From Eledone cirrhosa (taxonomy: Eukaryota), in assembly GCA_964016885.1 (NCBI GenBank), contig OZ024741.1:7626001-7690000 (forward strand): a stretch of 64,000 bases of DNA, given 5' to 3'. A program made the position numbers and the translations under genes. This document shows, piece after piece, positions 11,065 to 63,377 of this stretch (within the stretch, counting starts at the first letter, position 1; each line of letters opens with the position of its first letter). Below the pieces are notes generated by a model that saw only the letters and a program-made list of their open reading frames with translations, was not told where the DNA came from and did not search any database.

Positions 11065-11122
<58 letters not shown>

Positions 11123-11331
11123 CAAAGAAAGTATGGTAAGATACCAGGTGGACCATAACGCACCAGAGTACTCAATACTTAGGGTAGCAGAGTGGGTAAT
11201 ATATATATATATATATCGGCCTGCCCGCCTACCCAGTGGGATGGTGTTTTCTTTTGGCTAAAACAGCACGACGTGTTGTGACAAGCGGCGCCAATTGGCG
11301 CCCTACAGACTGGTCGGTCAAGGTGATCAAG

Positions 11332-11399
<68 letters not shown>

Positions 11400-11404
<5 letters not shown>

Positions 11405-12413
11405 TATTTACGTATCGAGAGAGAGTAAAAAAAGGGAGGATAGGTGATACAAATAGTTATTTGCCAAGTAGCGTATGCAAAAGGTGCTCGATACTAGTGC
11501 CGGCTGTATTAAATATTCGAAGTGTTAATATTTAGTGGGCTAGAGAGTTAGCAGAGCGTAAGCACGTGGAAAAGTAAGAAATCGGAGAATAGACCGTTAA
11601 AACATGTTTATTTAAAACAGCACCTACGTACGTTTCGCCCAGTTGGGCTTCTGAAGGGCATAAATAACCAAAAGTGTTCCTTACATTGCTCGGAAAGAGC
11701 TTTTGGGGTTAGTTCACGTCAAGATTCATTGCTCGCAAAAAATAGCTTCTCCACGCACTGGGGTATTGTTGGCAGGGCTGCACCGTACAACTTCAAGAGA
11801 AAGTGCGATCTTTGCCTCATGGAGCTCTACCACATCATAACTGCACCCCACGAGCTCATCAACAGCTGAGCTGAAACAGCGATAAGTTGTACACATCGCT
11901 TAAAAATATCCTTCTTCAGATGGGTTAAGGATGAGGAGTGAAACCGTGTACCGGATCTCCCTGCAACAACTTTTAACACCCCGGCGGGCAGGCGCTGCAA
12001 AATAACACCCAGGAAACTAACCAGGCATACCAGACCCAGCCTCAAACGACCCAGGCAAACAGGTGCGGTTAAACAAACGTCTCAAAATTTGCGTTGGTTA
12101 CATGACCCTGTGCGTATCGACAAGGGTAAGGTTGTAACCACATCTTGTAACAGATAAAAATTTGTCCGGGAAAGACTGCCCTAACACCGGCCAGAGTTAC
12201 CTCCCTTGACCTGCTGCAAAATCAAAACACGGTATTTTTGCGAGCAATGAATCTTGACGTGAACCTAACCCCAAAAACTCTTTCCGAGCAATATAAGGAA
12301 CACTTTTGGTTATTTATGCCCTTGAGAAGCCCAACTGGGCGAAACGTACGTAGGTGCTGTTTTAAATAAACATGTTTTAACGGTCTATTCTCCGATTTCT
12401 TACTTTTCCACGT
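11400..12413 (+). mobile_element. heavily 5'-truncated PLE with inverted pLTR
   Basis: 11564-11744 is the reverse complement of 12233-12413; spacer from 11747 encodes WGIVGRAAPYNFKRKCDLCLMELYHII...LINS*AE..SCTHR (PLE endonuclease C-terminus); degenerate HHR GCCCAACTGGGC-GAAACGTACGTA in both arms. Confidence 0.8.
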
Positions 12414-12423
12414 ATATATATAT

Positions 12424-15269
12424 AGAGAGAGAGATTAGAGTAGTCTCAATAGAATTTAGTAAGGTTCTAGCTGCGGATAGGAATAGGAAGGAAAGGGAGC
12501 TAATAGATAGAGTAGAAGAGGCAATTAGAAGCGGCGACGTGGCCAGAGTGCTAGCGTCGAGAACGGCTTTGAGCCAGTTTTTCGACGCGAAGCACGAAGG
12601 CTGCGTTGTCCGAAGTAAAATACGTGCTCTAGGGAACGAGGGGACCAAAGCTGTTAGCTGGGCCCGCGTGACAGAGGCCAACAGTGGAACTAAATCCACC
12701 ATCCGGTCTTTGCGAGACCTGGATGGACGGACGATTCTTGAGCCTAAGCAGATGTGTGAGGCCTTTCAAAGGCACTTTGCCCGACTGTTCGAGAGGGGCG
12801 GGGAGCCGGTTGGGAACGTGGACTTCGGTCCATACCTCGACGGCCTGCCGCGCCTCTCGGACAGGGAGGCGAAGTCCTGCGAGGAGCCGATTTCGGCCGC
12901 TGAGATAGAGGACGTGCTGAGCCAATGCGGCAAACGCAAATCCCCGGGTCTCGATGGTCTTCCTTACGAATTATATCTAGCTATGCCGGACTTGTTCCCC
13001 GATCTCCTCGAGGCGGTCTACTGCAACTGGCAACAGAACGGGAGAATTCCCTGTACTGTGACCAAGGGCGTAGTCACGCTAGTGAGGAAGGACGAGAACA
13101 AGGGGGACGAAATAAGTAACTTCAGGCCCATAACACTGCTAAATACAGAGTTACAGATTTTGGCCAAGGTGCTAGCAAAGAGGTTGGCGCTTGTCGTGGG
13201 CAACCTGGTGGGAGATGCGCAGACATGCGCTATCCCGTCCAGGTCCATCCATGACAACCTCCACCTCATGCGATACATCATAGAGAGGGTTGGGAACGAA
13301 CCCGGCTTTGGTGGGGCTCTGATCAACTTGGATCAATCTAAGGCGTTCGATAGGGTCGACCATGGTTACCTGGATGCGGTGCTAGCGGCGGCAGGCTTCG
13401 GACCCGTTTTCAGGGGCTGGATCACTGCTATGCACAGCAGCCGCATCTGCTCTAGGGTCAAGGTGAACGGCTACCTCTCGGAACCGTTCAAAATCGCGCG
13501 GTCCATCCGACAAGGGTGCCCTCTCTCCTCCCTTCTGTATGTGTTGACTCTCGAGCCACTACTGCGGAAGTTGGAGTTGTTGCAGGGCATCCCTTTGGAA
13601 CCGGGATTGCGGAAAGCGGTGTCGGCCTACGCCGATGACGTGACAGTAATGGTGTCGACGGCCTCCGAAATCGAGGTGGTCAGCACCTTACTGGAGGAGT
13701 ACGAAAAGTTCACAGGGGCTAAGCTGAACCGGGACAAGTCGATCGGTTTGCAACTCGGCACGTGGAGGGGCAGACCGATGCCCTCCGATGGCGTCGTCGG
13801 ACGCTGGACGGAGGGCCCGGTGAAGTTGCTCGAGGTCTGGTTCGGACCGGACCTCCAGGTGGAGAAAAACTGGGCGGAGGTTACGAACAGGGTGTTTGCA
13901 CTGACCCAGAAGTGGGCCAGTTGCAAACTATCCCTGAAAGGTCGGGCGGAGGTGGCGAACACCTACATAGCGTCCGTCATCTACTACCGCCTGACCGTAG
14001 TGCCCTGCCCAAGGGAAACCCTCACCAAGATGGAGCGCGCGCTCTTCCAATTCCTTTGGAAGAGGCGGGCTCCTATGGTGAGGAGATCCATCTGCTGTCA
14101 ACACCCTTCGAAAGGAGGGCTGGGGATGCCGTGGCTAATGATGCGTAAACACGCATTAAGGCTACGGCACCTCTATGTATTCCTCACCGGACAACCGGTG
14201 TGGGCCTCGTTTGTGAGACGAACCTTTCCCAGACTCGTCTCACTCACCGAGCTGCAATCCTGGGTCAAGCAAAGACCGAGAAAACTGGGCGCCTGGCACA
14301 CTGAGTGTGCCCAGGCGCTCACCGCCCTCTGGCAGGCGGATCCGGTTATCAGTGGAGACTCCACCGCAACATTCTATAGAGGGCTGGTACGCAGCAGGCG
14401 CGACGACGCCCTCGGAGAAGCCCTAGACATGGAGGAGGACGAACTGGCCAGCCTGTTCGGTAGGACATTCAGCCCGGGACCTATGGACAACTTCCAGAAG
14501 TCCCTGGCCTGGCAGTGCTACCGAGGGGCTTTACCCGTTCGAGAAAGGCTCTACAGACACGGGCGCCCGGGTAGGGACCCCGCCAAAAAGATCTGTCCCA
14601 GATGCGTGTGCGACGAGGAAACCGTTGCACACGCATTGGTACACTGCTCGGGCGTAGCCGATCTGTGGGGCTATGTCGAACAACTGCTGTCAAGGGTGGG
14701 ACCGATCCGGTTGACCACCGAGTCTATTGTAATGATCAAGCCGCCTCCCCCCTTCAAAGATGAAGCAGAGGCGGTGTTTCTGTGCGTAATAGCCATGGCG
14801 AAAGAGGTTGTATGGTGGACGCGTCTGAAAGGACTGAGGTCAGGCACCTTTCTCTCTGGCCAACAACTGGTCCGTTTCTTCCGATATCATTTCGGAAGAA
14901 GGATCAGGATGGAGAGAGAGGTGCTGCACCCCAGCCGTTTCTATGAAAGATGGGTGAAAGTGGCGAGAATGGCCCGTGTGAATGGGCCTTCACTCTACAT
15001 CAGACTATAGGTGAGGAAGATGAAAGACCAAGGGAGCACCCCTTCTCTGTGCTCCTGAGGAGAAGGGTTGCACACTTTTTTCGGGGGTGTGTGCGACCCC
15101 CCAAGGCGCCTCCTCTCTATTGAGGATTTTGTTAAAAATTTTATTTTTTGTTATATCTTATTTTATTTTTATATTTTGTTATTGCCTCCTCCTTATTGAG
15201 GACGCCTTTTTGTGTAAACTCCCCCTTTGTACTTGTCCCACTTTTGATGCCCTAGTGGCAAATAAAAGA

Positions 15270-22492: not shown

Positions 22493-22950
22493 TACACGCA
22501 CACACACACACATGCGCACACCCACAAACAAACAAGAACACGCACACACATAAACACACACACACACAAACACGCACACACATACAAACACACACACGTG
22601 CATATACACAAACATACATATAGTTCAAATTAAAATGAAGACACACACGAAGTACAACGATACACTGTGTTATTAATTTCATGCTTTATGGAAAAGGAAA
22701 AAGTATGTTTCAACGTTTCGGACGCTCGTCCTCCATCACCAGGAGAAAGTAAATTATTCTCGCTTGTTATTGCGAGGTTCGCGGATTGTTGCTGATCACG
22801 CAACACATGTTTTCTACTGGTTTCAGCCACCAGACTGCATATAAATATATATATATATATACTCTGCTCTGTATGAATATTGAGTGCTAATTTTGGCATA
22901 CCGCCTATGGAAGCACCATAGCTACCATTATACACAAGTATATATATATA

Positions 22951-23349: not shown

Positions 23350-24080
23350 ATATATATATTTAAAACAGAGAATGTCTGTCTGTCTGTCAGTCCCCCTAAA
23401 ACTCGAGAACCACCCAACCGATTTTTTCAAACTTTACACATGTAATACTTATGGTCGTGTGAGTATTTTGAGCAAAAAATATTTCAAGTTTTCAATACCC
23501 TAGGGACCGCATTAGGCGCCGGTTAGCGATCTCTCTCTCTTTCTTAGTCTGTCTTTTTAGATAGATACATAGCTATAACGTCGCGCCCTTATAATATCTG
23601 TTTGTATGTCTGGCTGTCTGCATTACGACATTATGAAAACATTGACTTCGTTATCTGTGTGTGTGTGTGTATATATAGTATGTGTATATATATATAGTGT
23701 GTAACGTTTTTCGGAATATTTACTTCTGCGTTCACATATTGATTTTTTTAGTTTCAGAAGATCCCGTTAAGGGTGAAAGCAGCGATTCTTTGCTTCTTTT
23801 GCTTTCATTGTACCATAGCACAACAAATACATGTTCAGTTTGTCGAATGCCTTTTTACTTAACCCTATCGTCTTGGCTTAATGGGTTGAACATTTTACTC
23901 TCAGGCACCCAATTAAGTTAAACCCCTGGTAATCTACGACGAATTTTTTTTATAAGCACAAAATGAAGACACCATCCCGAGGCAGAGGTATTCCGTACTT
24001 CTCTGTACTGTTTCAGAAAGAAGGGATAAACCTGCCAATCTATGTTTAGAATCCCGAGCAACGCCGGGCCATTCTGCTAG
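23350..24080 (+). mobile_element. non-autonomous Helitron
   Basis: 5' TATATATTTAAAACAGAGAATGTCTGTCTGTC (TC start lost in the TA run); 3' hairpin CCCGAGCAACGCCGGG then CTAG|T, nearly the same terminus as 4973-6026. Confidence 0.75.
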
Positions 24081-24577
24081 TATTTATTAAAATAACAGAT
24101 TAAAGTTTAAGCAAAGAATCGCTGCTTTCAACATTAACGGGATCTTCTGAAACTTAAAAAAATTCAATCTGTGAACGCAGAAGTAAATATTTCGAAAAAC
24201 GTTGCAACCGAAGGAAAACAGGAAGACGATACTTTGGTTTGTGAAGCCGAGAATCATTCGGTTTCCTAAATACAATATTAGTCTAATGACTCCATTTATA
24301 CCATAAACGTGGTTTTGTCTTTGCTTGTATTTGTTCTCATGGTCCACATAACGACGTATTATCTTCGCTTTTTTCCCGTTCATTGTCAGGGAACGTCTTC
24401 ACGAACCAAAGTATCGTCTTCCTGTTTTCCTTCGGCTGCAACGTTTTTGGAAATATTTACTTCTGCGTTTACAGATTGATTTTTGTTTAGATTCAGAAAA
24501 TCCCGTTAAGGGCGAAAGCAGCGATTCTGTGCTTAAACTTTAATCAGTTATTTTAATAAATATTTGCTCTAGGGTTC
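24081..24577. mobile_element. fold-back element with about 165-bp inverted arms, probably PLE pLTR-derived
   Basis: 24081-24246 is inverted to 24398-24562; hammerhead-like CAGAAGA-TCCC-GTTAA-GGG-GAAA; third partial copy at 23700-23797. Confidence 0.6.
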
Positions 24578-24884
24578 TTATATATTTGATATATATTTAT
24601 CCTTATCGAGCCCTCTTTGGATTTTAGTCTTCACATTTATTATTATTAATATATATATAAAGTACCAGTAATACACTGGGATAATTGCTGGCCTTGTGCC
24701 AAAAGTAGAAACAATTATTAATATATATATATATATATATATATACGCACAAATATAACACATATATATGTATATGTATATTATATACATATTATACGTA
24801 TATGCCACGTGTTTTTCTTCTCGAATTTTCCGTTTCTTCTCACTCTCTTCTATCTTTCTATTACTTCTTTAATTTATCATTCTA

Positions 24885-26971: not shown

Positions 26972-27449
26972 GGATGTTTTCCCAGATAAATTGTAGTATC
27001 ATACATATTAAAATCTCTATAACTGTTACATTAAGCAACGTTTTTCTTACTCACACATTCTCTATTGAATTTATTACGTTTTCGCATTTTCTCATAATTA
27101 GGGTATAAATGTTAAATTTTCTCTCAGGCTAATCACTACCTTGATTAAATCTTAACCATTTAACATCTCAGGGTATGTCATGTATCATTATATTTTGTCT
27201 GGTGAGGACGTACTGTTGTAGATCCGAAATATGTATAATAAAATGTAATTGATCAAAAGAACATCTATTTTATTAATATTTGTATTATAATATTAATAAC
27301 TCCGGAAAATTATTTTCCGTAGAGTGCTTCCAATCTACTGTAAAACTCATTCTTTGACATACTCATTGAATATTGTTTAACACTTTAATACATATTGCTC
27401 CCAACTGGTTGAGCGCTTTTCTATACAATAGATTGTATATTCAATAAAT

Positions 27450-29734
27450 ATGGATCTCTTAAACTTCCCGACTTCCCTCAAAGATATACCCAAACCTTCA
27501 AATGAAGAATACACAAAGAAAACTATCGAACAGACAAACTCTTTTATTAGAAGATTGAGATGGAGAGCTTTTCATTTCGAAAATAAAGATGCTGAAAGAA
27601 AAACCAACAACAATCATTTAGAATCTTTATTTAAATCAAGAAAAAATCCTCCATACAACAAACTTCTGGAGGTTTTTGAAACAGAAATGCTCGGTATAAT
27701 CAAAAAAATTAAATTTAGGAAAAACCCATATATAGGTCACCAATACCTCAGAACTCTAAAAGATAAAATCACTGAAATAAAAAATGTTAACAAAGTACTG
27801 GTTAAATCGGACAAAACTAATAATTTATATGGGATAAGCAAAGATGAATATAACAACTTGATTTTGAAAGAACTTAGGAAAAATTACAAAAAAGCCCCGG
27901 CTGAGGATCTTACTGAAATTAATGAAGAAGCCTACAAATTAATTACCAATTTAGGAATAGAAGGAAGAACTGAGCCATTCATACCTAGACAGCCGAGGAT
28001 CAACCTGAAGGATCATAAAAGAAACTTTAAGGAAGAGATGCCAGTTAGACTGATTGCTCCATCGAAATCGGATATAGGAGTAATCAGTAAAAACATCATA
28101 GATAGAATATTACCCACTCTTAAATTGAGATCTAGTTTGAGCTTGTGGAAAGATACAAACGAGGTTATAGAATGGTACACGAATATAGAAGTTAAAAAAA
28201 ACCCATAAATTCATCCAGATGGACATTACTAGCTACTATTCTTCCATAACACCTACCCTCCTAAATAAGGCCCTTTCATATGCTTATAAGCATACTGATA
28301 TAACCACGGATGAAATAGACATAATACTAACAGCCAGAAGAACTCTTATTAACTTCAATAACGAATATTGGACACGCTCAGATAGAGATAGAAACTTTGA
28401 TATCACTATAGGTGCATCCGATTCCGCGCAAATCACAGATCTTCTGGGAATTTTCATTTTAAACATGATAAATAGAAAATTGCCGGAGATTACCGGTGGT
28501 TTATATAGGGACGACATTTTATTTACTGTGGTCAAACACAACAATATAGAACTAAATAGAGTAAAGAAAAGTATAATAGAATTCTTTAAAACGTACGACC
28601 TTAAATTAGAAGTAGAAAATGGTACCAAAATAGTTAATTTCCTAGACGTTACCTTTAACTTAAACACTGGATTCTATTACCCTTTTCATAAGCCTAATGA
28701 AAACTTAAATTATGTTAGTAACTATTCAAATCACCCGAAATCTGTAAAAAAAGCTATAGTAAATAGTGTGCAAAAACGTATTAATAAAATATCAGCCAAT
28801 AAAGATATATTTGATAAAAACGCTGAATACTACAACGCGTTAAAAAGAGCAGGATATATGAATAATATAGAATATGTAGATAATAATAATCCAAGTATTA
28901 TTCCTAATAATAATAATAAAAATAATAACATATATAAGAGAAACTCTAATAATTATAATTTAAACCCCCATACGCCAAATAAATCGAGAATACGAACTAG
29001 ATCTAAATCAGTCATATGGTTTGCCCCCCCCCCCCCCTGCTTCGGTCGCAGTTAAAACACCAATTGCAAAATTATTCTTTAACGCTCTTGACACCTCTTT
29101 CCCTACTCAACATAAATACCATTCCATTTTTAATAAACATACCATTAAATTCTCACATTCTACAACTATGAAGATGGCCCAAAACATTGCCAAATTAAAC
29201 ACTAAAATCCTAAAACCAAACCAGCATAATGATCCTAATAATAGAGTTAACATAAATGATACTAAACCAAAATGTAATTGTAGAAATAAAACTGATTGCC
29301 CTTTGCAAAATAATTGTCTAGATAGTAATTTGGTTTATAAATGCACCGTAAAAACTGATCACAACACATACAACTACATAGGATCAACCTCTTCGACATT
29401 CAAAGCCCGATTTGCGAACCATAAATGCTCATTCTCGAACTCTAAGAGGAAATCATCCACGACTTTATCACAGCTCATATGGCCATTAAAAGAGAGGAAT
29501 TTAAAATACTCCATTCTTTGGACAAAACTTCGGAACGGTGGAATTTACCGTAACTCTAGTATATCAAATAACTGCGCGCTCTGTACAATGGAGACCCTGT
29601 TGATTATTAATAACTATGAGACCCTAATTAACAAAAAAAGTGAATTATTCTCTAGTTGCCCCCATAAAGCTACGTCCACTTTTTTAGCCTCCCATAAAAC
29701 GAGAAAAAAAGAGAGAATAACATTAAACCATTAA
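27450..29734 (+). pseudogene. PLE RT + GIY-YIG endonuclease, split by two frameshifts
   Basis: VKSDKTNN, RLIAPSKSDIG, DITSYYSSI, LYRDD, NFLDV, SNHP, CNCR..CPL..CL, LVYKC..YIGST..FKARFANH, CALC; breaks at the A run near 28200 and the C run near 29030. Confidence 0.92.
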
Positions 29735-30373
29735 TAACTTGGTTGCCAGGAATATATAATCAACAGGGAAAAACATTAATGGCCTTTAATATTGCTTTAT
29801 CTTATAGCTATCTATAGAAGAAATAACGCTCGAATGAAAGACACTTGTTCAATAACATGCCGGAACATTGATATACATAACATTATTTTATTAACTTTGA
29901 TCAATACCATTATTTCTTTATTTCTTTATTTCTCTATCTTTCTTCCTATCTATGTTTTAAAGTTTAGTTTAATACCCAACCCATACATCTTTACGGAACT
30001 TATCTATAACTGTGAATTTTTAATGCGTTTTTGATCTCTTATTTATAGTATAATATAATATAGTATATTATAATATGTATGTAATTATAATTTTTTATAT
30101 TTTAAAATATACCTACTGCACTTTAAAATCTAAAATTTATAACAGATTAAAACTTATATATAAATGTGAATTTTTTGGTGCATTTTTGATCTCTTATTTA
30201 TAATATAATGTATTATAATATGTATGTAAGTATATATTATATTTTATATATTTTTAAATATACCTACCACATTTCTATATCCATGATTCAAATATAGAGA
30301 AAATATCCAAACTAAAAATTATTATAGACATTATTTTGAACTCTGAATTATCCATGCACTTATTATTGTTTTT

Positions 30374-30440
<67 letters not shown>

Positions 30441-30443
<3 letters not shown>

Positions 30444-30499
30444 AACCAGTAAGACCCCGACAGCTGAGCTCAAGCCGTTTCGAAGGCTAATTCTGGACT

Positions 30500-30530
<31 letters not shown>

Positions 30531-30676
30531 TTTTTTAGTCCAGAATTAGCCGTCGAAACGGCTTGAGCTCAGCTGTCGGGTTCTTACTGGTTCCTATTAC
30601 CCACTCTACTACCTCAAGTATTGAGTACTTTGGTGCGTTATGGTCCACCTGGTTCCTTACCACATTTCCTTCGTTA
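30441..30676. mobile_element. small fold-back pLTR derivative nested in (TA)n inside the PLE 3' UTR
   Basis: About 58-bp inverted arms around an A-tract/T-tract centre, plus an 80-bp tail; relatives at 11121-11200 and 62921-63112. Confidence 0.75.
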
Positions 30677-31835
30677 TATATATATATATATATATGTATT
30701 TAAATGTAACACGTTGAACTCTATTTTATAAAATTATAACCGTTATCATTTACCTAAAGTATACCGCACCACTGATACCTAATATATATCTATATATACC
30801 TCCCTATATCTTCCTATACATAATTTTTAGTTAACTTCTAAATTTCTTGATTATGTATACTCTGAACTAAGAATAATTAATGCATTTACACCCAGTTATA
30901 TATAGGTGTTTATTTAACCTTAACATACCTCAATCTATTATTTTATTTTTATTTTCGTTATTATTTACTTAAAATATACTGGCTCATTAATATATATCTA
31001 TATACATAATCGTTATTTAAATATTTCTAACAATAAATATTTCACAAGCTTTACATACCTAATATGTTGGTATCTTCGTTAAAGAATAATTAATGCATTT
31101 ACACCCAGTTATATATAGGTGTATATTTAACCTTAACATGCCTCAATCTATTATTTTATTTTTATCTTCGTCGTTATTATTTACCTAAAATATACTGGCT
31201 CATTAATATATACCTATATACATAATCGTTATTTAAATATTTCTAACAATAAATACTTCAAAAGCTTTACATACCTAATATGTTTGTATCTTTGTTAAAG
31301 TTTAAATTTAGGAAAATAATCAACAGTATAAAATTTCATTCTTGATGTGCCAGCTAAATTCTTTAAATGTTACCCTCATAAAACTCAGAAGCTTAGAAAT
31401 GTTAACACACTTATAGAATTTATAAAACTAATATATAAATAACCAGCAAATAATCCTGAAATCTTGATTCTTCACCCTAAAATTATAAATTAAATATTTT
31501 CAAAATTAACCGTTTAACTTACGGGAAAAATCTCCTTCTGCATATATCACCCTCCCCCATTTATCTTTCCCTCTCTATAAATCCTTTTCCAGGGGCTATC
31601 ACTGGCTGTTATGATTCATGAGATGTTTTCATAGATAAATTGTAGTATCATACATATTAAAATCTCTATAACTGTTACAACGTTTTTCTTACTCACACAT
31701 CTTCTATTGAATTTATTACGTTTTCGCATATTTCTCATAATTAGGGTATAAATGTTAACTTTTCTCTCAGGTTAATCACTACCTTGATTAAATCTTAACC
31801 ATTTAACATCTCAGGGTATGTCATGTATCATTATA

Positions 31836-31886
31836 TTTTGTCTGATGAGGACGTACTGTTGTAGATCCGAAATATGTATAATAAAA
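31836..31886 (+). ncRNA. hammerhead ribozyme in the 3' pLTR (the 5' copy at 27193-27243 has CTGGTGA)
   Basis: TTTTGT-CTGATGA-GGA..TAC-TGTT-GTA..TCC-GAAAT-ATGT-ATA-ATAAAA. Confidence 0.8.
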
Positions 31887-32025
31887 TGTAATTGATCAAA
31901 AGAACATCTATTTTATTAATATTTGTATTTTAATATTAATAACTCTGGAAAATTATTTTTCCGTAGTGCTTCCAATCTACTGTAAAACTCACTCTTTGAC
32001 ATACTCATTGAATATGGTTTAACAC

Positions 32026-32112
<87 letters not shown>

Positions 32113-32386: not shown

Positions 32387-32571
32387 ATACAATAACAGAG
32401 ATAGCTTAAAGCTAAACTCTGACTGGTAACCATCTCACTCAACAAACATTAGGTTATATGTTAGTATAACCGAATTTAAGTGTTTGGGGTGCTAACTATA
32501 TGTATTATGTGGAAAGCCAGTTGTATTATTTTATGAGCTATAATTAAAGTTAAAGTATATATATATATATG

Positions 32572-32990
32572 TTATTCAGAATAATAATAAATGAAGACAT
32601 TCACATAATCAAAATATATGTTTTATTATATATATTATATTTCGAAGGTACTGTGTTGTTTTTTTCAGTACGTCCTCGTCAGATAAAATACATGAATTGA
32701 TGTATGACATACCTCAACTGTCTTGATAGTTCAATTCCAGTATTGGCAGTACTGGATTTGAACTATCAAGACAGTTGAGGTATGTCATACATCAATTCAT
32801 GTATTTTATCTGACGAGGACGTACTGAAAAAAACAACACAGTACCTTCGAAATATAATATATATAATAAAACATATATTTTGATTATGTGAATGTCTTCA
32901 TTTATTATTATTCTGAATAATATTAATAACTCCAGAAATCTTCCATTTAGAGTGCTTTTAATCTATTGTAAAACTATATTCATTGAGTAA
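32572..32990. mobile_element. near-perfect 350-bp palindrome of a PLE pLTR with an HHR in each arm, plus tail
   Basis: 32572-32740 is inverted to 32749-32920; HHR at 32804-32871 is TTTTAT-CTGACGA-GGA-c-GTACTG..CAGTAC-c-TTC-GAAA..ATA-ATAAAA. Confidence 0.85.
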
Positions 32991-33192
32991 TCAATGAACC
33001 ATGGATATTGGAAGTAAAATATGTTTGATAACATCTAATGTTATTATATATCATAGTCTGTGGTTATATATATATATGTATATATATAAGGAATGGTATC
33101 GACCTTAATTAGTAGTGATTTACAGAGGTTGGCTGAGGAGATGGGAGTATCAGCCCTTTCCCTTGTCTTTAACCTGTGCGCTCCCTATTTTG

Positions 33193-33258
<66 letters not shown>

Positions 33259-33632
33259 AGATCCGCTAAGGTGAAACAATTGTTCTCGGTATGGTGAACT
33301 AACTGTTGTATAACCACTTCTACCAAACTCGTCCCTTGGACTGAGTGCTCTACCACTACGGATATTACCTTCCAGTGTTCTACCTTTCTCTCTCTCTCTC
33401 TATATATATAATATATATATTTTAGGGAACCAAGAATCAGTGTTACATTATATACATATTTAATTACATATTACATATATTTCACTGTCGATCAGCTCGA
33501 GGAACGATCTATTTATGATCGAACCTGACTCTGTAATCGGAAGCTCCTTGGATATGTGTTAACATGTAGACTCGTGTCTACAACTCTTACACGCAAGTCT
33601 ACATGTTAACACATATATAGTGGTATTCTATA

Positions 33633-36173: not shown

Positions 36174-36310
36174 AATAAATATGGTTTTATAAATATAGTT
36201 TCCATTTATTTAATATCATTGAATATTTACTCCAGAAACTGTCGAGTGCTCTGAATCAGTTATAAACATTTATATTTGTTGAATTTCCAACAAATTAAAT
36301 ATCCCTTCTA

Positions 36311-36343
<33 letters not shown>

Positions 36344-36346
<3 letters not shown>

Positions 36347-38990
36347 GGAGGTGAGTTTTATTGTAGTACAATAAAGCAATGCAGATATCGGATAATAAGC
36401 ACTCTACAGTTTGTAGGACTGGAGTATACATAATATATAAGAACAAAAGATGGTTAAAAGAGTTCCATGGTTTGGTACTTCTGAAGTGATTAGCTGGTTC
36501 AACGAATTGAATAATAAAAGCAATCTAAAATTTGTTCAATTTGATATTGCCAGCTACTATTCTTCTATTTCGCCTTCACTTCTCAATAATGCTCTATCTT
36601 TCGCACTTAAATATTCTGACATCACCACAGATGAACTTCACATCATTCTCACCGCACGTAAAACCATCCTAGAGTTCAACAACGAATATTGGACCAGAGC
36701 CGATACCTCTAACAACTTCGACATCACAATGGGAGCATCCGATTCATCCCAATTGACAGATTTAATTGGTATCTTTATTTTGAACTCTTTGAGTCGGAAA
36801 ATTCCTCAACTTCGCGGTGGAATTTATCGTGACGATGGACTCTTTACTATCTTAAATTGCAACATAGTTAACCTTAATATTATTAAGAACAATATATGTA
36901 ATCTCTTTAACCAACATAACCTAAAAATTGAATTTGATAACAGCATCAAACTAGCTAATTTCTTGGATGTATCTCTTAATCTTGACACTGGCCTATATTA
37001 CTCTTACCATAAAAACAATGAGAACCTAAATTATGTTAACTTTAAATCTAACCATCCTACTAATATCAAGAATGCTATAGTTAGTAATATTGGAAAAAAA
37101 TATCTAACCTATCTTCTAATAAAAACATCTTTGATGCTAACGCCAATTACTATAATAACGCGCTTTCTAAAGCCGGCTATCCTGATAAAATTAAATATAG
37201 TAAAGAAACAAATTCTAGAAGAAATTACAGTAGAATAATTAATCATGATCATTCCAATAACTAATAAATGACCTAGATACAAAAACATAATCTGGTATAA
37301 TGCTCCTTTCTCCATCTCTATTAATAACAATATTCCTAAATTATTCTTTAATGCCTTAAATAAATGCTTCCCTCCCTCACATATCTATAGTAAAATATTT
37401 AACAAACACACTATAAAATTTTCCTATTCTACATCCTCCAACATTTCCAACATTATCTCTAAACACAACAATAAAATACTAAATACTAAATCTCTTCCTT
37501 CCAACACTGAATATCATAATATAGTACTCCCGACGTCATTGTAAACCCTAGGCTAATTTCTACAAACCCAAATACAACGTCAAACACAACTTCGCTAAAT
37601 GTTCTTAATCCCATTCTAAATCAAGAAACTATTATTCCTATCGCAAATAACTTCTCCAATCCAATTCCTTCTATAGATAACACTAGGTCACTCATTAATA
37701 ATCTCTCTAATCGCAATTGCAATTGCCCTATTAAAAATAAATGTCCTCTCAACAACCATTGTCTTGATAAAAACTTAATTTACGAGTGTAAAGTTATAAC
37801 TGACACCAATTCCTTCACCTATTTTGGCTCCACTTCCACCTCTTTTAAAGCTCGTCTTTATAACCATCATTCGTCTTTTAAATACAAACTTAAAAGAACC
37901 AACACGGCTCTCTCAGAACTCATATGGTCCTTGAAAGACAAAAATATTAAATATAGCATCTTTGAACAGTTCTCTATCCAAAATTTGCAATCTCTGCCTA
38001 AATGAAAAATTTACCATTATTTCTAATTTAGATTCTATAATAAATAGACGCACTGACTTGTTTTCTATCTGCTTGCATAAATTCCATAAAACATTTCACA
38101 AAGTATACAGCTAATATTCAATTCTTTATCAATTTAGAATCTTTTTCTCAAAGGCACATATATATATATATATATACACTTCTTTTAAAAATATACCCAT
38201 CTTTCTACCTTATTTCAAAGGTTATTATACATTCTATAATACTTGTTACTCATTCTTCTCTTCTTCTTTTAATGTCTAACCCCTAATCTGTACCTTTTCT
38301 CACTCTTGCCTAACATAGAATCAATTACTACATAATACAATACATTCTTACTCTATACCACCTTATAAAAATCCTTCGTAAACATATACATTTTTTGACG
38401 TTAGATTATTCATCCTCAATTCATTATTCTTTTCTCCCTTTCATCTAACTCATTCATCTCACAATATTTCCTTACTTAAATAACCTGCTGTTCCTTTTAA
38501 TAATACATATCAACATCTTCTTAACATCGCACATATTATTAAACCCTTAAACATTATTCTCAATGCATATTAACATTTTCTTTTTTCATCGCACATATTA
38601 TCAAACCCCTCAATATACAAACCTTAACTTTACATTATTTTTCTCTTCGTTAATTTTCAAATTCTTTTAATTTATTCATTATATTCCAACGGTTTTCAAC
38701 CTCTCTATGTAAAACAATATATCTTTCTCAGTTATAAAAGCTATCTCTCTCTCTCTATCACCCATCTCTCCTCCTATCTCATCCTTCCTCATTATACTCC
38801 TCCCTCTCCACTTTTTACTCTCATCTCCTCCTCTTTTCCACCCCCACCCCTCTAAATAAAATATTTTCCCAATATCACACATCAATCTAAAACTACTTCT
38901 CATATGTTGATTTAAAACTGAACTATCCTTTCATCTTTCCAGGACCAATAAGATACCAGTTATCTACTGGAGTTCATTTAATCAACATCC
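36344..38990 (+). mobile_element. 5'-truncated degenerate Naiad-like PLE with a short inverted pLTR piece
   Basis: ORF 36450-37238 has FDIASYYSSI and IYRDDG; CNC..CPL..LIYEC..YFGST near 37715-37870; 36430-36469 is the reverse complement of the pLTR end seen at 59233-59266. Confidence 0.88.
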
Positions 38991-48549: not shown

Positions 48550-49156
48550 GTGGCTGCCAACTCGTTTTCGAATACGGCCACTACTTTATATCCATGTAGG
48601 AGAACTCCTACCGATGCGCTGAACGAGTGTGAATTTTTAGTCCAGCCAGCAACTTGAAAACTCTGGCACAAACACTACACTTGTGACAATTATTGACACA
48701 TAGTACTGGGCCCATGGTTCCATGTGACGACAAGTGCAGAGAGATCTCCAGATATAAAGCAATGCCTATGCCGTGAAGCTTTTATAGTGAGCAAAGGCAC
48801 TGCACAAAGCCAGTCCCACTCTCTTAACCAAGATGATATTTACCAAAAAGAAGAACAAGTCAACATCATTGGATACCATCAGGGTTGCAGGTAGTATATC
48901 AGAGTTTTCCTTCTCCTAGAATTCTGCCTTGACAAAGGCTAAGGGGTCATCTCTCCCGGTGATTTTGGATGGCCATTGACTCTTAAGAGCTCCTTTGCCC
49001 TTTGACAGGTTTTGTTTTTAGTCCGGCAGGATGTCCAAAGTCACCCTCCTCACCAAGAAACCTTGGTGTGTTTGCCAGTTTAGTCGCCAACGACCCGACC
49101 ATGAGACAGGTTGTACTGGGATACATGTTACCAGTAGCACCAACTGGTGACCTGAC
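48550..49156 (-). mobile_element. bipartite non-autonomous RTE-derived element, second copy (partial third copy at 50638-50903)
   Basis: Direct similarity to 46298-46905. Confidence 0.7.
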
Positions 49157-49254
49157 ATAATACATACATACATACATACATACATACATACATACATACA
49201 TACATACATACATACATACATACATACATACATACATACATACATACATACATA

Positions 49255-52119: not shown

Positions 52120-52252
<133 letters not shown>

Positions 52253-52458
52253 TTACAATAATCAAAGTTCAGTTTAAATCATTTATTTGCTTACAATTGT
52301 TTCCTCCAAACCGAGGTTTGGATTCTTCGGACCAAGTATTTAGTGATCTATAACATACTTGACCTCCTTTTCAACACAAGAGACATATAAAAACATATGC
52401 ATATATTGACCCACAGTGGGATGACATCCATCATAATGATATAGCATGGCAATTTACA

Positions 52459-52839
52459 TATAAAAATAAAAATAAAAATAAAAATAAAAATAAAAATAAA
52501 AATAAAAATAAAAATAAAAATAAAAATAAAAATAAAAATAAAAATAAAAATAAAAATAAAAATAAAAATAAAAATAAAAATAAAAATAAAAATAAAAATA
52601 AAAATAAAAATAAAAATAAAAATAAAAATAAAAATAAAAATAAAAATAAAAATAAAAATAAAATTAAAAATAAAAATAAAAATAAAAATAAAAATAAAAA
52701 TAAAAATAAAAATAAAAATAAAAATAAAAATAAAAATAAAAATAAAAATAAAAAAAATAAAAATAAAAATAAAAATAAAAATAAAAATAAAAATAAAAAT
52801 AAAAATAAAAATAAAAATAAAAATAAAAATAAAAATAAA

Positions 52840-52870
<31 letters not shown>

Positions 52871-53147
52871 TAAAAATAAAAATAAAAATAAAAATAAAAA
52901 TAAAAATAAAAATAAAAATAAAATTAAAAATAAAAATAAAAATAAAAATAAAAATAAAAATAAAAATAAAAATAAAAATAAAAATAAAAATAAAAATAAA
53001 AATAAAAATAAAAATAAAAATAAAAAAAATAAAAATAAAAATAAAAATAAAAATAAAAATAAAAATAAAAATAAAAATAAAAATAAAAATAAAAATAAAA
53101 ATAAAAATAAAAATAAAAATAAAAATAAAAATAAAAATAAAAATAAA

Positions 53148-53178
<31 letters not shown>

Positions 53179-53267
53179 TAAAAATAAAAATAAAAACAAA
53201 AATTAAAATAAAAATAAAAATAAAAATAAAAATAAAAATAAAAATAAAAATAAAAATAAAAATAAAA
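52459..53267. repeat. (TAAAAA)n hexamer tract inside the pLTR
   Basis: About 810 bp, nearly pure. Confidence 0.97.
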
Positions 53268-54905
53268 CATTGGCAGTTTATGAAGATAAAGCAAGAGAGA
53301 TTAGAGTAGTCAGTGTATGAAACAATCTCACGTGTAGCATGCACGCGTGTCTTATTTATACAGGATTAGAGTGCGGCAGATAGTTACTTGTAGGATCAGG
53401 CAGTTAAAGCAGGCAATCAATAGTATTATGTGGGCTGTATTGTTAAATCATTTTTTCGCATACACCTGTATGATATACAATCCCGAATGTAGAGAAACAC
53501 CAAAATATCAAAAATATCAAACATATTATAAAACATATTATAACATATGCAAAACAGTACCACTGTCTTCGCACACACCACCACTCACATAATCCATGAA
53601 ACGCAATATATAGACTACAGGTCTATCACACAATCCACGATGATTCAGCATAGAACCAAGTTATAAACCATATCTTGTCGATTCCTAATTAATAGATCAT
53701 GTTGTTTAGTTTTGTGAGATGACATTATATTCCGGAAGTGTGTGTGTGACCAAGGGGAGTTAATGCGTAAGGGGAGTTAATGCGTAAGGGGAGGTAACTG
53801 GCTGATTTTCATAGTTAAATTTATTATCCTAAATTACATTAATGGTCTTTCAAATAAGTCCCTATCATATGATGTTATAACTAATTTCTAGATTAGGTTA
53901 CTTATAGGTTACAGTGTAGTCTATTAAGAAGTACTAAAGGTGTACATATCAGGATGATTACCTTCTATTAAGGAGTGTCACACCTGAACATTCTATAAGA
54001 AGAGTCAGACCTCCAAATCAATGTTCTTTGTAAGTGTAGTCCACTCTCAGAACCTGGCAGGGTCTTATTATTATATATGACTCCCGGTAAGCTCATTGTA
54101 TGTCTGAATCCTTGGCAAATTTAAATATCACCAGGGTGGCCCGGTGATCAATTCTCTCATATAAAGACATTAATCTGGCCATCAAGCAATACATAAACTC
54201 CCAACTCATATATAAATTAAATTAGGTTTCTTATCTATAAATTACAGTGTAGTCTATTAAGAAGTACTAAAGGAGTTCATATCATGATGATTACAATCCA
54301 ATATGGAGTGCCACACCTGAACAATCTATAAGAAGAGTCAGACTTCCAAATCAATGATCTTTGTAAGTGTAGTCCTCCCGCAGAACCCGGCAGGGTCTTA
54401 TTACTATATAAGACTCCCGGTAAGTTCTGGGTCATTGTATGACTGAATCCCTGGTAAATTCAAATATCACCAGAGTGGTCCGGGGACCGGTTCTCCCATT
54501 GAAAGACACTAATCTGGCCATCAAGCAATACAGAAACTCCTAACTCATATATCACCTGTGCATAATTCATTGTACTCATCATATAGAATATATAGTCCCT
54601 TTAATAATAAATTAATTACTTAATCATCTATCTATCCCATGGTGGCACTCCATGCACAGGATTATGTTAGCACAACCAATACAGTGTCTACAGTTTACAT
54701 TAATCATATATTTGTGCAATGTAGTCCAAGTAATCCAAGGCCAACATATCAGAATTAGAAGTATATGGGGGTATCTCCAGGGTAGATGGTACTATAAGGT
54801 TGCCACTATTAGCTTTAGAGTATATAAATGGGTGTAGAGATGAGGTGTAAGGTGTGCCACTGATGCTAATTGCTAGAGGAGGTGACGGGTTCAAGTCTGA
54901 CATTG

Positions 54906-55898
54906 TTATATATAGGGTTTAAAGTTTTGGAAAGAGTGTCGGAAGCGGTGTTGGCAAGATGCGAACACTTCTGATTTTTTATTAAGGAGATTATGGTTAG
55001 AGAAGATGATAGTATGGGTCTCTAGTAGACAGAGCTTACAAAATTTATTAGGTGGTTTGTACGATGTTGCATTACCTACCACTTCCCATTTAAGTGTATA
55101 TAGTTTATTTTTTGTTTTTAGATAGTGTATGTAGCTAGATAGTGAAGTGGAGTTGGCTAGACTGTGTTTTTTGAAAGAGTGGAGGTGCGAATTGTATCTA
55201 GTTTTGAAGCAGTTAGAAGTAGAGCCTATATAGGTTTCAGAAGAGTTGTTAGTTGTGACTGTGCATGAGTATATGATATCCTTGGTTAAGCATTTTTTAT
55301 CTAAAGGGCAGGTTCTATTAGATCTACAGTTACAATTATTCTGGGTGTTAGTCTGCCGGTTAATATGCTGTGTAGAAGTCTGGATGTTAGCTATAGGGTT
55401 ATAGTTATGTGGGTTGTCGTTCCCAGCGTTATTGTTTACACTAGTACTATTACTATTATTTCTATTGATATTAGGGTTAGTTGCTATAATGTTATTTTGA
55501 ATGTTATTTTGAAGGTTTATCGTCTGTTGTGATTTAGTTTGTTGGAAGTAAGAATTAATTTTTCTTTTATTGCTACTAGCTATGTGGTATGCTAAGTTAG
55601 GCGTAGTAGAGTAGGAGATTTTAATAGTGTTTTTGTTTAAAAGGCTATGGTACTTGTGGCCGGATGGGAAGTTTTTATCTAGTAGTGAGAAGAAAGTCCT
55701 AGGTAGGTTGGTAGAGACGTTTAGATTGAAAGGAGGGTTGAAAAATGTATTATTTCTTCTTCTATTTCTGTTTTTTATGTCTGGTGATTTGTTTCCTTTT
55801 ATGTTACTATGGTAATTTCTGTGGTGTGGGTTACTTTTGTTGTTATCATCTCTATTAGTGTGTATGTGGTTGCTATTCTTATTATTAAATTTTCTCAT
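54906..55898 (-). CDS. PLE linker + GIY-YIG endonuclease (truncated; frame open to about 56027)
   Basis: FFNPPFN, KISYSTTPN, CNCR..CPL..CL, IIYSC..YIGST..FKTRYNSH, CKLCLLE, CQHR. Confidence 0.88.
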   Translation of the reverse strand: MRKFNNKNSNHIHTNRDDNNKSNPHHRNYHSNIKGNKSPDIKNRNRRRNNTFFNPPFNLNVSTNLPRTFFSLLDKNFPSGHKYHSLLNKNTIKISYSTTPNLAYHIASSNKRKINSYFQQTKSQQTINLQNNIQNNIIATNPNINRNNSNSTSVNNNAGNDNPHNYNPIANIQTSTQHINRQTNTQNNCNCRSNRTCPLDKKCLTKDIIYSCTVTTNNSSETYIGSTSNCFKTRYNSHLHSFKKHSLANSTSLSSYIHYLKTKNKLYTLKWEVVGNATSYKPPNKFCKLCLLETHTIIFSNHNLLNKKSEVFASCQHRFRHSFQNFKPYI

Positions 55899-56736
55899 GG
55901 ATATGTTGTGCGAAATAATGTTGTAGCTATGCGTTTTTATAGGTAGGAACTCGATCTCTATATTATGGCCTGATCTAGCTAATGCCTGATTATAATATTG
56001 CGAGTTATTGTTAAATATGTTTACGTCATATGATATAATATGTTTTATAATATGTTTGATATTTTTGATATTTTGGTGTTTCTCTACATTCGGGATTGTA
56101 TATCATACAGGTGTATGCGAAAAAATGATTTAACAATACAGCCCACATAATACTATTGATTGCCTGCTTTAACTGCCTGATCCTACAAGTAACTATCTGC
56201 CGCACTCTAATCCTGTATAAATAAGACACGCGTGCATGCTACACGTGAGATTGTTTCATACACTGACTACTCTAAACTCTCCTCTTGCTTTATCTTCATA
56301 AACTGCCAATGTTTTATTTTTATTTTTATTTTTATTTTTATCCTTTAACCTTTATATGTAAATTGCCATGCTATATCATTATGATGGATGTCATCCCACT
56401 GTGGGTCAATATATGCATATGTTTTTATATGTCTCTTGTGGTGAAAAGGAGGTCAAGTATGTTATAGATCACTAAATAGTTGGTCCGAAGAATCCAAACC
56501 TCGGTTTGGAGGAAACAATTGTAAGCAAATAAATGATTTAAACTGAACTTTGATTATTGTAATCTCTATATAACTGCTCTGTAAAACAACCGATGTTATT
56601 ACATTGAGCTATTTATCTTACTGGTAATAAGATAGTAATGAATGACTATCTTTCACTATTTGGGGTTTGTATATAAAAAATATATAACCATAAAAGGTTT
56701 TATTATATACATAACCATAAATAGTATCCTTAATAC

Positions 56737-56880
<144 letters not shown>

Positions 56881-59560: not shown

Positions 59561-59567
<7 letters not shown>

Positions 59568-61785
59568 ATACTTGGGGAGGGTCATATTTGTGTAATATTG
59601 CCAGAATTAATAACAGAACACACTCACTGTTTGGTTGGTTTTCGCTTCTCGCTTCTGTGTCTTTTATATCGGTAATCTAACTTACTCGGTCCTCAATGTT
59701 GCCATTGACTGACCGATGGTCAAAAATAATACAGATACAATATAGACACAAACACATATATATAGTTTATCATAAATCTTTCGTTGCACATCTGCAACAT
59801 CGTCAGTGGTGTTATCGTTTCCTCCTGTTGTATTGTATGTCTACGCCATTTTTATTCAGTCTGTCTATATATTTATTTATTTATTTGCTTGCTTGTTTAT
59901 TTTATTTTGTCTTCATTGCGCATGCGTTTGCGTGTGTGTATAGTGTTTTGTTTGCTGTGTGATGGGTAACTAGTGTGTGTTTATGTGCTTGTTGTTATTG
60001 TGCTTGTGTATGTATTTATTTATTTATTTATTTATTTGTTTTATTTTATTTACTTATTTATACTTCTCTTAGGTCAGTGTTGTTTGTTTGGGTGTTGTTG
60101 TTATTCCATTCATTCTTTCTGTTTAGTCTTGGTCTTCTAATTTCTATTTCACTGGCCTCTCTGATTTGCCTATCTGCTGGGTCATTTCTATGTTTAGATA
60201 TTATTCTAATTTCTATGTTGTCTATGTTACCGTCATGTTGTTGTCTAGCATGTTCGTATAGTACTGACCCGTTTTTTCGTCCTTTTAGTTCCCCCCAGTG
60301 TTGGTCTATCCTTTCACCTATGCTACGAGCTGTCTCACCTATGTATGTTGTTGTCATGTTTCTGCAAGTACCCTCTGTACATCTTATGCTATAGACTACG
60401 TTTCTAGTTTTACAGTTTATCCGGGGGTTTACCTTACATATGATACATTTCCTATTGGTACAGTGGGTTTTCTTAAAAGGGTAGGTTTTACTGATCAGGG
60501 ATTTTATGGTGGTTCCTGGCTTTTCTACCACCTTAATTTTTAAGTATGTCTTTCTCAGGGCCTTTCTACACTGGTTAGCTAATTTCCCTCCAGGGGTAGC
60601 GTCCACAAACATGACACTCTGGTATCTCTGGTTGTCGTACCATGAGGTGACTTTCCCTATCTTATGTCTAGCCCTATCTAAGCTATTCCATGATTTGCTC
60701 CTGTATAATGGGCAAATTCCTTTCATGTCCAATTCTATGAGGGTCTTATACTTCTCCATGGCTCCTTCGTATACTCTGACTCTGTCTCTTTGGTTGTAGC
60801 CAGAGAACTGCATGCGGTTGATGCAGTGTTGGATGTGTCTTTCCATTTCTGTTGGGTCGCACATGCGGGACACATTCTTCATCACTCGTACCAAATCTGC
60901 GATCAGAATATTAAACTTAGCACTACTGGACATTACTGAGTTTTTGAGTATCAGGTATTTGGAGGCCATGGGTTTAGCATAGTGTGAGTGGAGAATTTGG
61001 GCTCTCTCGTCTATAGTGTTAATCCAGAGTTCTGTGTCTAATACAGGTAGTCTATTGTTAGGGTGTTTGGAAGGGAAGTCGATAGTTACAGTTATACTCT
61101 GGTGTATGGAATTAGCTATCTGCTGGATGCTTTCCATCCTGCTACGTTCTAAATCAAACTTGTTAGTGCTCTCTAGTGGGGATGTTCTTATAACTATATT
61201 GATATCGTCTACATAACGAGAGTACATGATGAGGTCTATGGAGCTCTCATTAAGGAGATCTTTAAGTCTCCTTTCCCACCATACCATGAAAAGGTTGGCA
61301 ACATCACCAGCTATGCTGACGCCAATGGCTGCTCCCTCATTTTGGGTGTAGATCTTCTCGTTGAACTTAAATATGTGGCCCTTTAGGGTAGTTTTGATAC
61401 TAGCCCCTATTGCATGTGCGACCATTTTCCTTACCTGATCATTGTTTTGGGGGATCCGTATAGCTTTGGTCCACCCAAACACCACTGACGATGTTGCAGA
61501 TGTGCAACGAAAGATTTATGATAAACTATATATATGTGTTTGTGTCTATATTGTATCTGTATTATTTTTGACCATCGGTCAGTCAATGGCAACATTGAGG
61601 ACCGAGTAGGTTAGATTACCGATATAAAAGACACAGAAGCGAGAAGCGAAAACCAACCAAACAGTGAGTGTGTTCTGTTATTAATTCTGGCAATATTACA
61701 CAAATATGACCCTCCCCAAGTATAACAATATTTGTTTCGACACACGATTTCATATAAAAAACCTCGCAAAACTAATTCATCGCCG

Positions 61786-61787
<2 letters not shown>
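59561..61787 (-). mobile_element. 5'-truncated Neptune-like PLE with inverted pLTR
   Basis: 59561-59813 is inverted to 61478-61730; each arm has the minimal HHR CTGACGA-T-GTTGCA-GATG-TGCAAC-GAAA. Confidence 0.9.
60058..61485 (-). CDS. PLE RT C-terminal half + Cys-rich linker + GIY-YIG
   Basis: YTQNEGAAIG, YSRYVDD, LPVLD, C..KCIIC..C, VVYSIRC..YIGETARS..RIDQH. Confidence 0.9.
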   Translation of the reverse strand: MVFGWTKAIRIPQNNDQVRKMVAHAIGASIKTTLKGHIFKFNEKIYTQNEGAAIGVSIAGDVANLFMVWWERRLKDLLNESSIDLIMYSRYVDDINIVIRTSPLESTNKFDLERSRMESIQQIANSIHQSITVTIDFPSKHPNNRLPVLDTELWINTIDERAQILHSHYAKPMASKYLILKNSVMSSSAKFNILIADLVRVMKNVSRMCDPTEMERHIQHCINRMQFSGYNQRDRVRVYEGAMEKYKTLIELDMKGICPLYRSKSWNSLDRARHKIGKVTSWYDNQRYQSVMFVDATPGGKLANQCRKALRKTYLKIKVVEKPGTTIKSLISKTYPFKKTHCTNRKCIICKVNPRINCKTRNVVYSIRCTEGTCRNMTTTYIGETARSIGERIDQHWGELKGRKNGSVLYEHARQQHDGNIDNIEIRIISKHRNDPADRQIREASEIEIRRPRLNRKNEWNNNNTQTNNTDLREV

Positions 61788-61833
<46 letters not shown>

Positions 61834-62095
61834 TTATTTATTAGATATTGAGTTAGAAACTTAAAATAGTCTCTTACAATTAAATAGCTCAAAGAAAGAA
61901 GATTTTCCGAGCCGTGTAATATGATTGAATATACAAGAGAGATAAACACAAATATAAACATATATGTGTTCGAAATGTAAAGGACCAGATTCAGTAGGGT
62001 GAAAAAAATACTAACTATAACAATATGGTTTGCCAGACTTAATTCAAAGTTATAAATCAAGAAAAAGAACAAACCTATTTTGGGCAACTGCCCGA

Positions 62096-62175: not shown

Positions 62176-62198
62176 AAAATATATATATATATATATAC

Positions 62199-62890
62199 AA
62201 TATATTAATAAATGGAAATTATATTTATAAAACAATAATTATTTTATTATATATATTTCAAGGGCAACCAAGGCAAATTTTGGTGCGCTTTCATCATATA
62301 AAATACAAATTTGTTTTATAAATAAATATTGAAATACCCGCATAAAGACAACCTTAACGGTTGAGGTTCGCTGGATAGTGGAAGAAATATTTTATTGAGG
62401 GTTAACCGTAATAATATTTTAACCGTTAAAGTTGTCTTTATGCGGGTATGTCAATATTTATTCATGAAACAAATTTGTATTTTATCTGATGAAAGTGCAC
62501 CAAAATTTGCCTTGGTTGCCTTTGAAATATATATATAAAGACAACCTTAACGGTTGAGGTTCGCTGGATAGTGGAAAAAATATTTTATTGAGGGTGATCA
62601 CCCTCAATAAAATATTTTTTCCACTATCCAGCGAACCTCAACCGTTAAGGTTGTCTTTATGCGGGTATGTCAATATTTAATTATGAAACAAATTTGTATT
62701 TTATATGATGAAAGCGCGCCATAATCTACCTTGGTTGCCCTTGAAATATATATGAGAAAATAATGATGGTTTTATAAATATAGTTTCCATTTATTAATAT
62801 ATTGAATATTTACTCCACTAAACTGTTGAGTGCTTTATATCAGTTATAACAATTTTTAAGCTTGTTGAATCCCAACAAATTAAATATAAC
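62199..62890. mobile_element. multiply inverted PLE pLTR element with three HHR copies
   Basis: Alternating -,+,-,+ segments; palindrome centre GAGGGTGATCACCCTC near 62598; intact HHR core at 62481-62539, ATGATGA cores near 62295 (-) and 62705 (+). Confidence 0.8.
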
Positions 62891-62920
62891 CGCTGCATAT
62901 ATATATATATATATATATAT

Positions 62921-63110
62921 AGGAAAATGTATGACCCCGACGGCAGAGCTCAAGCCGTTTCGACGGCTATTTCTGGACAGAAATAGCTGACGAAACGGCT
63001 TGAGTTCTGCCGTCCTGGTCATGCATTTTCCTATTACCCACTCTACTACCCTAAGCATTGTGTACTCTGGCGCATTATGGTCCATCTGGTTCCTTACCAC
63101 AACTCATTCG

Positions 63111-63112
<2 letters not shown>
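62921..63112. mobile_element. small fold-back pLTR derivative, same family as 30441-30676
   Basis: About 55-bp inverted arms with almost no spacer, plus a tail; flanked by (TA)n. Confidence 0.75.
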
Positions 63113-63156
<44 letters not shown>

Positions 63157-63377
63157 CAAGTAAGTATGCTTTTAAACAGTGAGCAGGTTTGAAGTTAGAA
63201 AATAGAATAGCTTTCGCCGTATTTTGACTACAGAAATTTTAGTCTGATTTTGGGGTTTAGAACCCTCAGATAAATGGAAAAAGATGAGTATTGGCGTACA
63301 TGGGAGTCGAACCTACATCTTTGGTTATCCATACCACTGTGCTACTATTACACCAACACAACATGTGTTGGTGTTCT

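Follow-up and report, generated by a model that had tools for sequence, protein, structure and literature searches.

The reverse transcriptases (RTs) of Penelope-like elements (PLEs) are the sister group of telomerase RT. The closest described system is PAc, a Poseidon element of Anolis carolinensis (Frangieh et al. 2024), whose RT starts internally in vitro at two sites that bound a sequence called the tail (PMC11167929). This reaction requires RNA 3' of the start; the target is AT-rich, both strands are nicked and extended, and a dimer is predicted. The PAc start lies inside an AC-rich stem-loop in the open reading frame (ORF), the tail is 30-40 nt long and there is no homology to the target (PMC11167929). 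The general idea of internal two-site initiation tied to the tail is already published for this Poseidon element. Here we describe Hydra-clade PLEs in a 64,000-nt stretch of the Eledone cirrhosa genome (GenBank assembly GCA_964016885.1, contig OZ024741.1, positions 7,626,001 to 7,690,000; the window), starting from one element that we call family A. These elements carry a bulged hairpin in duplicate. Because almost every inserted copy stops a few bases short of one of these hairpins, the hairpins likely tell the enzyme where to begin copying.

PAc and the Hydra elements have in common two fixed genomic ends that bound a tail. Unlike PAc, as far as it can be compared by its description, the elements studied here have two conserved hairpins ahead of the ORF, with a putative start site 5' of each. 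Their tails are 55-169 nt long, their end sites share 1-7 bases with the target, and no repeated conserved motif is described for PAc. For the Hydra clade, the reported marks are an RWK-like motif, a change of DKG to DKT, a CxCX5C motif, a C-terminal GIY-YIG endonuclease (EN), a hammerhead ribozyme, (TA)n targets and a length generally below 3 kb (PMC8557442). In the accessible text of that paper the word "stem-loop" occurs 0 times, hairpins are unmentioned and tails are explained by EN resolution. Several units found here exceed 3 kb. A duplicated hairpin marking PLE ends was not found in the literature searched, including the available text of PMC8557442, PMC3846280, PMC4209133 and bioRxiv 10.64898/2026.07.22.740005; subscription papers and figure supplements could bear on this.

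The source genome is 3.0 Gb in size, and the window is full of TA tracts and of repeats nested in one another. The two pseudo-long terminal repeat (pLTR) copies of family A (26973-27395 and 31622-32037) are 94.6% identical, and its 3' untranslated region (UTR) is split at 30376-30694 by an insertion of family B. The hairpin has the form RCUC–stem-loop–UN–GAGY: RCUC and GAGY pair in a lower stem of 4 bp, two nucleotides bulge out on its 3' side, and the upper stem-loop may have any length. This descriptor matches 25 times across both strands of the window (128 kb), the real motifs included. The hairpin is present twice per element, each copy lying 3' of one of the two insertion ends at the borders of the tail; both hairpins are placed between the hammerhead and the start codon. 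As expected from family A, hairpin 2 was found behind the tail end in all six families with a read-through copy (A, B, C, D, G and H). The spacing between hairpins 1 and 2 in these families is 78, 87, 90, 98, 166 and 169 nt. Because it varies over 78-169 nt while the distance from end to hairpin stays fixed, tail length follows hairpin spacing. In family H, a directed pattern which required only the 5' half of the stem gave 287 matches, and nearly all of the 100 listed had the full hairpin 2. In family C, hairpin 2 is damaged in one read-through copy and intact in further copies. No family B read-through was present among the 100 matches listed of 253, and one was found at locus L080. Families E and F gave no read-through copy among the loci examined. 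In short local windows, the lower stem folded with a probability above 0.5 in 42 of 46 metagenome motifs and in 8 of 11 motifs from the own genome.

The ends of inserted copies were then counted at loci sampled across the genome. The anchors used to draw copies lay upstream of both candidate ends, which made selection independent of the end. Each family contributed at most 30 loci (26 in the case of H), the first by position or the best by score among 26 to 31,190 matches; a preliminary DNA search that favoured read-through copies was excluded from the end statistics, and a few copies may be assembly duplicates. Among 210 copies of six families, 3 read through and 207 end. Of the 207 ends, 195 fall in the 14 nt upstream of a hairpin, 115 of them at hairpin 1 and 80 at hairpin 2; these zones make up 11-16% of the searched span, which is the chance expectation. 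Across the genome, the ends are sharply fixed beside the hairpin rather than broadly spread. Counted from the start of the flanking repeat, 145 of the 195 lie 6-9 nt from the hairpin; if the last matching base is taken instead, as in the initial annotation, distances of 2-8 nt prevail. With stricter end calling, in which the comparison is terminated at private substitutions, 165 of the 207 fell within -1 to 10 nt. Several of the remaining 12 resemble miscalls on degenerate flanks. The insertion target of these families is (TA)n, with which most end sites have 2-7 bases in common (1-7 over all sites, with a single base at site 1 of family C). The shared bases choose among sub-positions in families D and H. 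There are 63 other alternating TA patches, 8 of them at least 5 nt long, which are nearly unused as ends.

These counts extend the initial annotation of the window, which had listed nine pairs of copies and noted that the shorter one stops just before a bulged stem-loop. All nine are present, with motif starts at 27397, 11557(-), 32929, 30603, 63040, 62812, 56576, 36425(-) and 24566. The shorter copies also stop where described: 32032 equals 27390, 6 nt before 27397, and 12413 and 62199 lie 6 and 7 nt before their motifs. They run into (TA)n except at 24081, which meets another repeat, and near 52250, where (CT)n comes first and then (TA)n. The skipped bases are mostly AT-rich but not always, 12413, 30441 and 62921 being exceptions. 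A single stem-loop and a single start had been assumed, but there are two hairpins and two end sites. The leading pair, 32032/27397, belongs to hairpin 2 and the other eight to hairpin 1; the family A copy of the leading pair reads through hairpin 1 (27299, with its counterpart at 31942 in the 3' copy). The list lacked a tenth pair that can be compared, 59563 versus 61731, which has fixed ends with no motif.

We next considered relatives in other organisms. A protein search and metagenome scan yielded 77 loci with about 40% protein identity, of which 49 included the ORF start plus 150 nt upstream and formed 32 clusters. With the descriptor fixed beforehand on the own genome, the motif was found upstream of the ORF in 28 of the 32 clusters, in 18 of them with at least two copies. 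Controls gave 20 of 1600 shuffles (1 of 1600 for two copies), 3 of 32 reverse strands and 2 of 361 ORF windows. The first inner pair, for which the search required no pairing, is complementary in 47 of 49 motifs (33 C-G, 14 U-A). Second pLTR matches numbered 29, of which 14 were cut by contig or query ends and 15 were informative; 11 of these 15 end 0-6 nt before a hairpin. No relatives were found in the viral contigs searched. The published consensus Hydra-1_Ajap carries both hairpins, and two more Hydra records carry one near their ends (PMC8557442, supplement).

Judged by their translations, the elements whose proteins were read are Hydra-clade PLEs. The family A protein has RT first and GIY-YIG last in one ORF, with RWR, DKT and CxCX5C motifs. 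A C-terminal GIY-YIG following RT, together with RWR and DKT, was read in families A, B and D. Families A and B have the CxCX5C linker, no CCHH, and CxxC plus CxH near the end of the EN; the linker is likewise present in D, G and H. Family C was matched to Hydra-type families by tblastn, and E and F are related by DNA to family A or to each other. The GIY-YIG/Hydra assignment rests on motifs because Pfam returned no relevant match for the RT/GIY-YIG ORF pieces of the window. A canonical hammerhead core is present in pLTRs at 31842 (the 3' copy of family A), 32810, 36124, 59170 and 62486; a hammerhead for family B was not located. Tandem units are 3.1 kb (B), 3.3 kb (D) and 4.3 kb (G) long, and many metagenome contigs are 2.3-3 kb. 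The elements had been called Naiad-like. Naiad has an N-terminal GIY-YIG and no canonical hammerhead, so the C-terminal EN and the hammerheads, together with RWR, DKT and CxCX5C, place them in the Hydra clade instead. The rule is limited to this clade and not general to PLEs as first supposed. Family I, a PLE with no Hydra marks (loci L237-L266 and L272), has 8,758 anchor matches and three sharp end clusters with no such motif. The bulged hairpin is a trait of the Hydra clade. Family I may have a hairpin of another kind after its last end.

Positioning of the RT start by the hairpin is the best reading of the fixed ends and agrees with the internal initiation seen in vitro for the Poseidon element (PMC11167929). 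We consider it probable, from the sequence comparisons, that each hairpin docks the element protein and sets the RT start at a point of the RNA 6-9 nt 5' of itself. The hairpin, acting as RNA, would bind the element's protein and hold the RT, and the nicked (TA)n strand would prime DNA synthesis at an internal RNA position directly 5' of the hairpin. The hairpin would set the zone, and the 1-7 bases shared with the target would pick the exact base. Primer pairing on an AU-rich patch 5' of the stem-loop, as first proposed, agrees with the shared bases at most sites but appears optional, with one base at site 1 of family C. The two nicked target strands would be primed one per hairpin, perhaps by a protein dimer, and the RT would often slip or restart at the start, leaving template-derived repeats. 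Several observations weigh against this mechanism. The lower stem has a probability below 0.5 in 3 of 11 own-genome hairpins by local folding, all of them hairpin 1, and no more than 31 of 46 motifs have a Watson-Crick second inner pair. The lower stem is nearly invariant and therefore offers little covariation. G-U and A-C counts are 11 versus 5, too few to tell the strand or to tell RNA from DNA. Four of the 15 informative metagenome ends lie elsewhere, and about 3-4 of the 100 listed family D rows end, by eye, in the TA-rich loop of hairpin 1.

Junction repeats offer signs of a synthesis start. The family G template has a CT pair at site 1. In 22 of 40 site-1 arms at least 3 CT units precede the TA tract, whereas none of 26 tail-bearing arms has them at this position. 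Inspection by eye also showed junctions where the final 4, 9-11 or 17 nt of the template are duplicated, and a 16-nt piece that occurs twice, on either side of a TA run. The junction repeats are most simply read as slippage or restart of the RT. Later growth of the repeat after insertion may be another source; over 25 rows, CT length showed no relation to arm divergence (rho 0.24, p 0.26). We disfavour an origin of (CT)n in a compound microsatellite that was there before insertion, since the partner flank holds (AG)n in 1 of 14 pairs.

Inverted pairs with no intervening TA tract combine site 1 with site 2 in 69 of 75 cases; 5 are 1+1 and 1 is 2+2. Excluded from the 75 were 19 further pairs with an unclassified or read-through arm. 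Forty pair regions were hand-picked from listings: 20 family G pairs of any type and 20 neighbouring matches sought mainly for read-throughs. A tail on one of two inverted pLTRs has been noted before, and the inversions were ascribed to self-priming on an antisense template (PMC3846280). We propose that priming of one strand per hairpin would yield inverted pairs with a tail on one arm. In some inverted pairs (L273, L294, L295, L301) both arms have the same flank past the TA tract, like a mirror-image flank duplication, which may be biology or an assembly artefact.

The strongest alternative is that the hairpin works in DNA. The GIY-YIG EN would recognise it in single-stranded cDNA or in the second strand and trim a longer intermediate 6-9 nt away before joining. 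Craig et al. ascribed the tail to EN-mediated resolution (PMC8557442), the Drosophila virilis EN needed the tail for recognition (cited in PMC11167929), and a GIY-YIG family with site-specific cutting of single-stranded DNA exists (PMC11893778). The present data, moreover, fix neither the strand nor the molecule, RNA or DNA. We nevertheless regard trimming as unlikely; the repeats derived from the template, like the short duplications, lie right at the junction and are better explained by a synthesis start than by a cut, and the Poseidon tail ends are RT start sites in vitro (PMC11167929). Less probable again is that the hairpin directs an RNA cut just 5' of itself, the RT then starting at the new RNA 3' end as in LINEs. 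Fixed ends with small jitter would fit a processed 3' end equally well, and RNA-seq reads of the Poseidon element end at the start sites (PMC11167929). However, the Poseidon RT uses uncut RNA (PMC11167929), and read-through across both hairpins exists, in 3 of 210 copies and in nearly all listed rows of the 287 family H matches. An Rfam scan of the window also found no family that matches the hairpin at gathering score, with one tRNA-like match only. That TA microhomology or AT-richness alone sets the ends, the hairpin having another job such as translation control and lying nearby by coincidence, agrees with the shared bases, with the sub-positions that follow these patches and with the closeness of hairpin 2 to the start codon, but is very improbable and largely refuted by the end counts because the other TA patches, some of them longer, are nearly unused, one site shares a single base, and both ends track both hairpins over a variable spacing.

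Hairpin-guided initiation invites comparison with two other systems. In telomerase RNA, template positioning involves a structured RNA beside a short internal template, few bases pair with the primer, and repeats are added by realignment. The likeness is partial: here there would be no fixed template boundary, copying running for kilobases, and the RNA would be the element's own mRNA. The hepadnaviral epsilon is a bulged stem-loop tied to the RT start, which is protein-primed and templated from the bulge, whereas here the start would lie outside the hairpin and the primer would be target DNA. It is conceivable, though we hold it only tentatively and as rather doubtful, that a pre-telomerase ribonucleoprotein has a living model in Hydra PLEs: a protein dimer would hold two hairpins of a single RNA, prime the two nicked target strands, one at each hairpin, align the primer on 1-7 template bases and add repeats by slipping, so that the elements would themselves write part of the microsatellite tracts in which they sit.

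Table 1. Coordinates of PLE features in the window
Feature	Position	Strand	Remarks
Family A element (Hydra clade)	26973..32032	+	5' pLTR, ORF, long 3' UTR, 3' pLTR with tail
Family A hammerhead motif	27186..27248	+	Approximate bounds; one core base altered in 5' copy
Family A end site 1	27290..27293	+	4 bases in common with TA target; 18 of 38 ends
Family A tail	27294..27390	+	Between both end sites; hairpins 98 nt apart
Family A hairpin 1	27299..27325	+	
Family A end site 2	27388..27390	+	Corresponds to 32030-32032 in 3' copy; 17 of 38 ends
Family A hairpin 2	27397..27414	+	35 nt ahead of start codon
Family A RT + C-terminal GIY-YIG ORF	27450..29734	+	Two frameshifts, hence three frames
Family A hairpin 1, 3' pLTR copy	31942..31968	+	3' half damaged
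Family B inverted pair	30441..30675		Minus arm stops at site 1 (30441); plus arm hairpin 1 30603-30626, site 2 end 30675
Family C inverted pair	11401..12413		Plus arm site 1 end 12413; minus arm hairpin 1 11557-11486, site 2 end ~11401
Family D inverted pair	24081..24720		Minus arm site 1 end 24081; plus arm hairpin 1 24566-24611
Family E inverted pair	32570..33064		Hairpin 1 32929-32953, upper stem weak
Family F inverted pair	62197..62896		Hairpin 1 at 62812; related copy hairpin 36229-36247
Family G inverted pair	52238..56740		Minus arm site 1 end near 52250, (CT)n then (TA)n; plus arm hairpin 1 56576-56609, site 2 end
Family H arm	36343..36470	-	Hairpin 1 36425-36401, site 2 end; another H copy stops at site 1, 59266
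Family B-related inverted pair	62921..63111		Hairpin 1 decayed, 63040
Family I element (no Hydra marks)	59563..61787		Control: fixed ends, no such hairpin

Other features of the window were also recorded. The hairpin occurs in three further families, at 61887-61912 (-), 9048-9107 (-) and 33327-33346 (+), and in two of these, copies at other loci stop shortly before it. Stretches resembling a tail alone lie at 11122-11200 (-) and 22860-22938 (+); they begin just ahead of hairpin 1 and have TA tracts on both sides. Different PLE families stand tail to tail within one TA tract at many loci (e.g. 36313-36343 and 62897-62920), forming nested clusters. The non-TA repeat at 24030-24080, perhaps Helitron-like, adjoins the family D end, and similar sequence follows TA tracts at L140 and L241. 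ORFs of non-LTR retrotransposons at 12326-15010 (+) and 49156-50424 (+) gave RVT_1 and/or zf-RVT matches. The tRNA-like Rfam match, at 63292-63362 (-), is weak and probably marks a tRNA-derived repeat.

How a PLE RT chooses its RNA and its start site, and why one arm has a tail, are questions as old as the description of the tail. A hairpin that is short, duplicated and shared across the clade would be a defined cis element for this choice and would tie the sister group of telomerase to internal priming guided by RNA structure. It would also give a rule for drawing the boundaries of Hydra elements, and RNA-templated insertion could use it as a loading tag. One family has 31,190 exact anchor matches, and if stuttering at the start site is real, PLEs this abundant may give rise to microsatellites.

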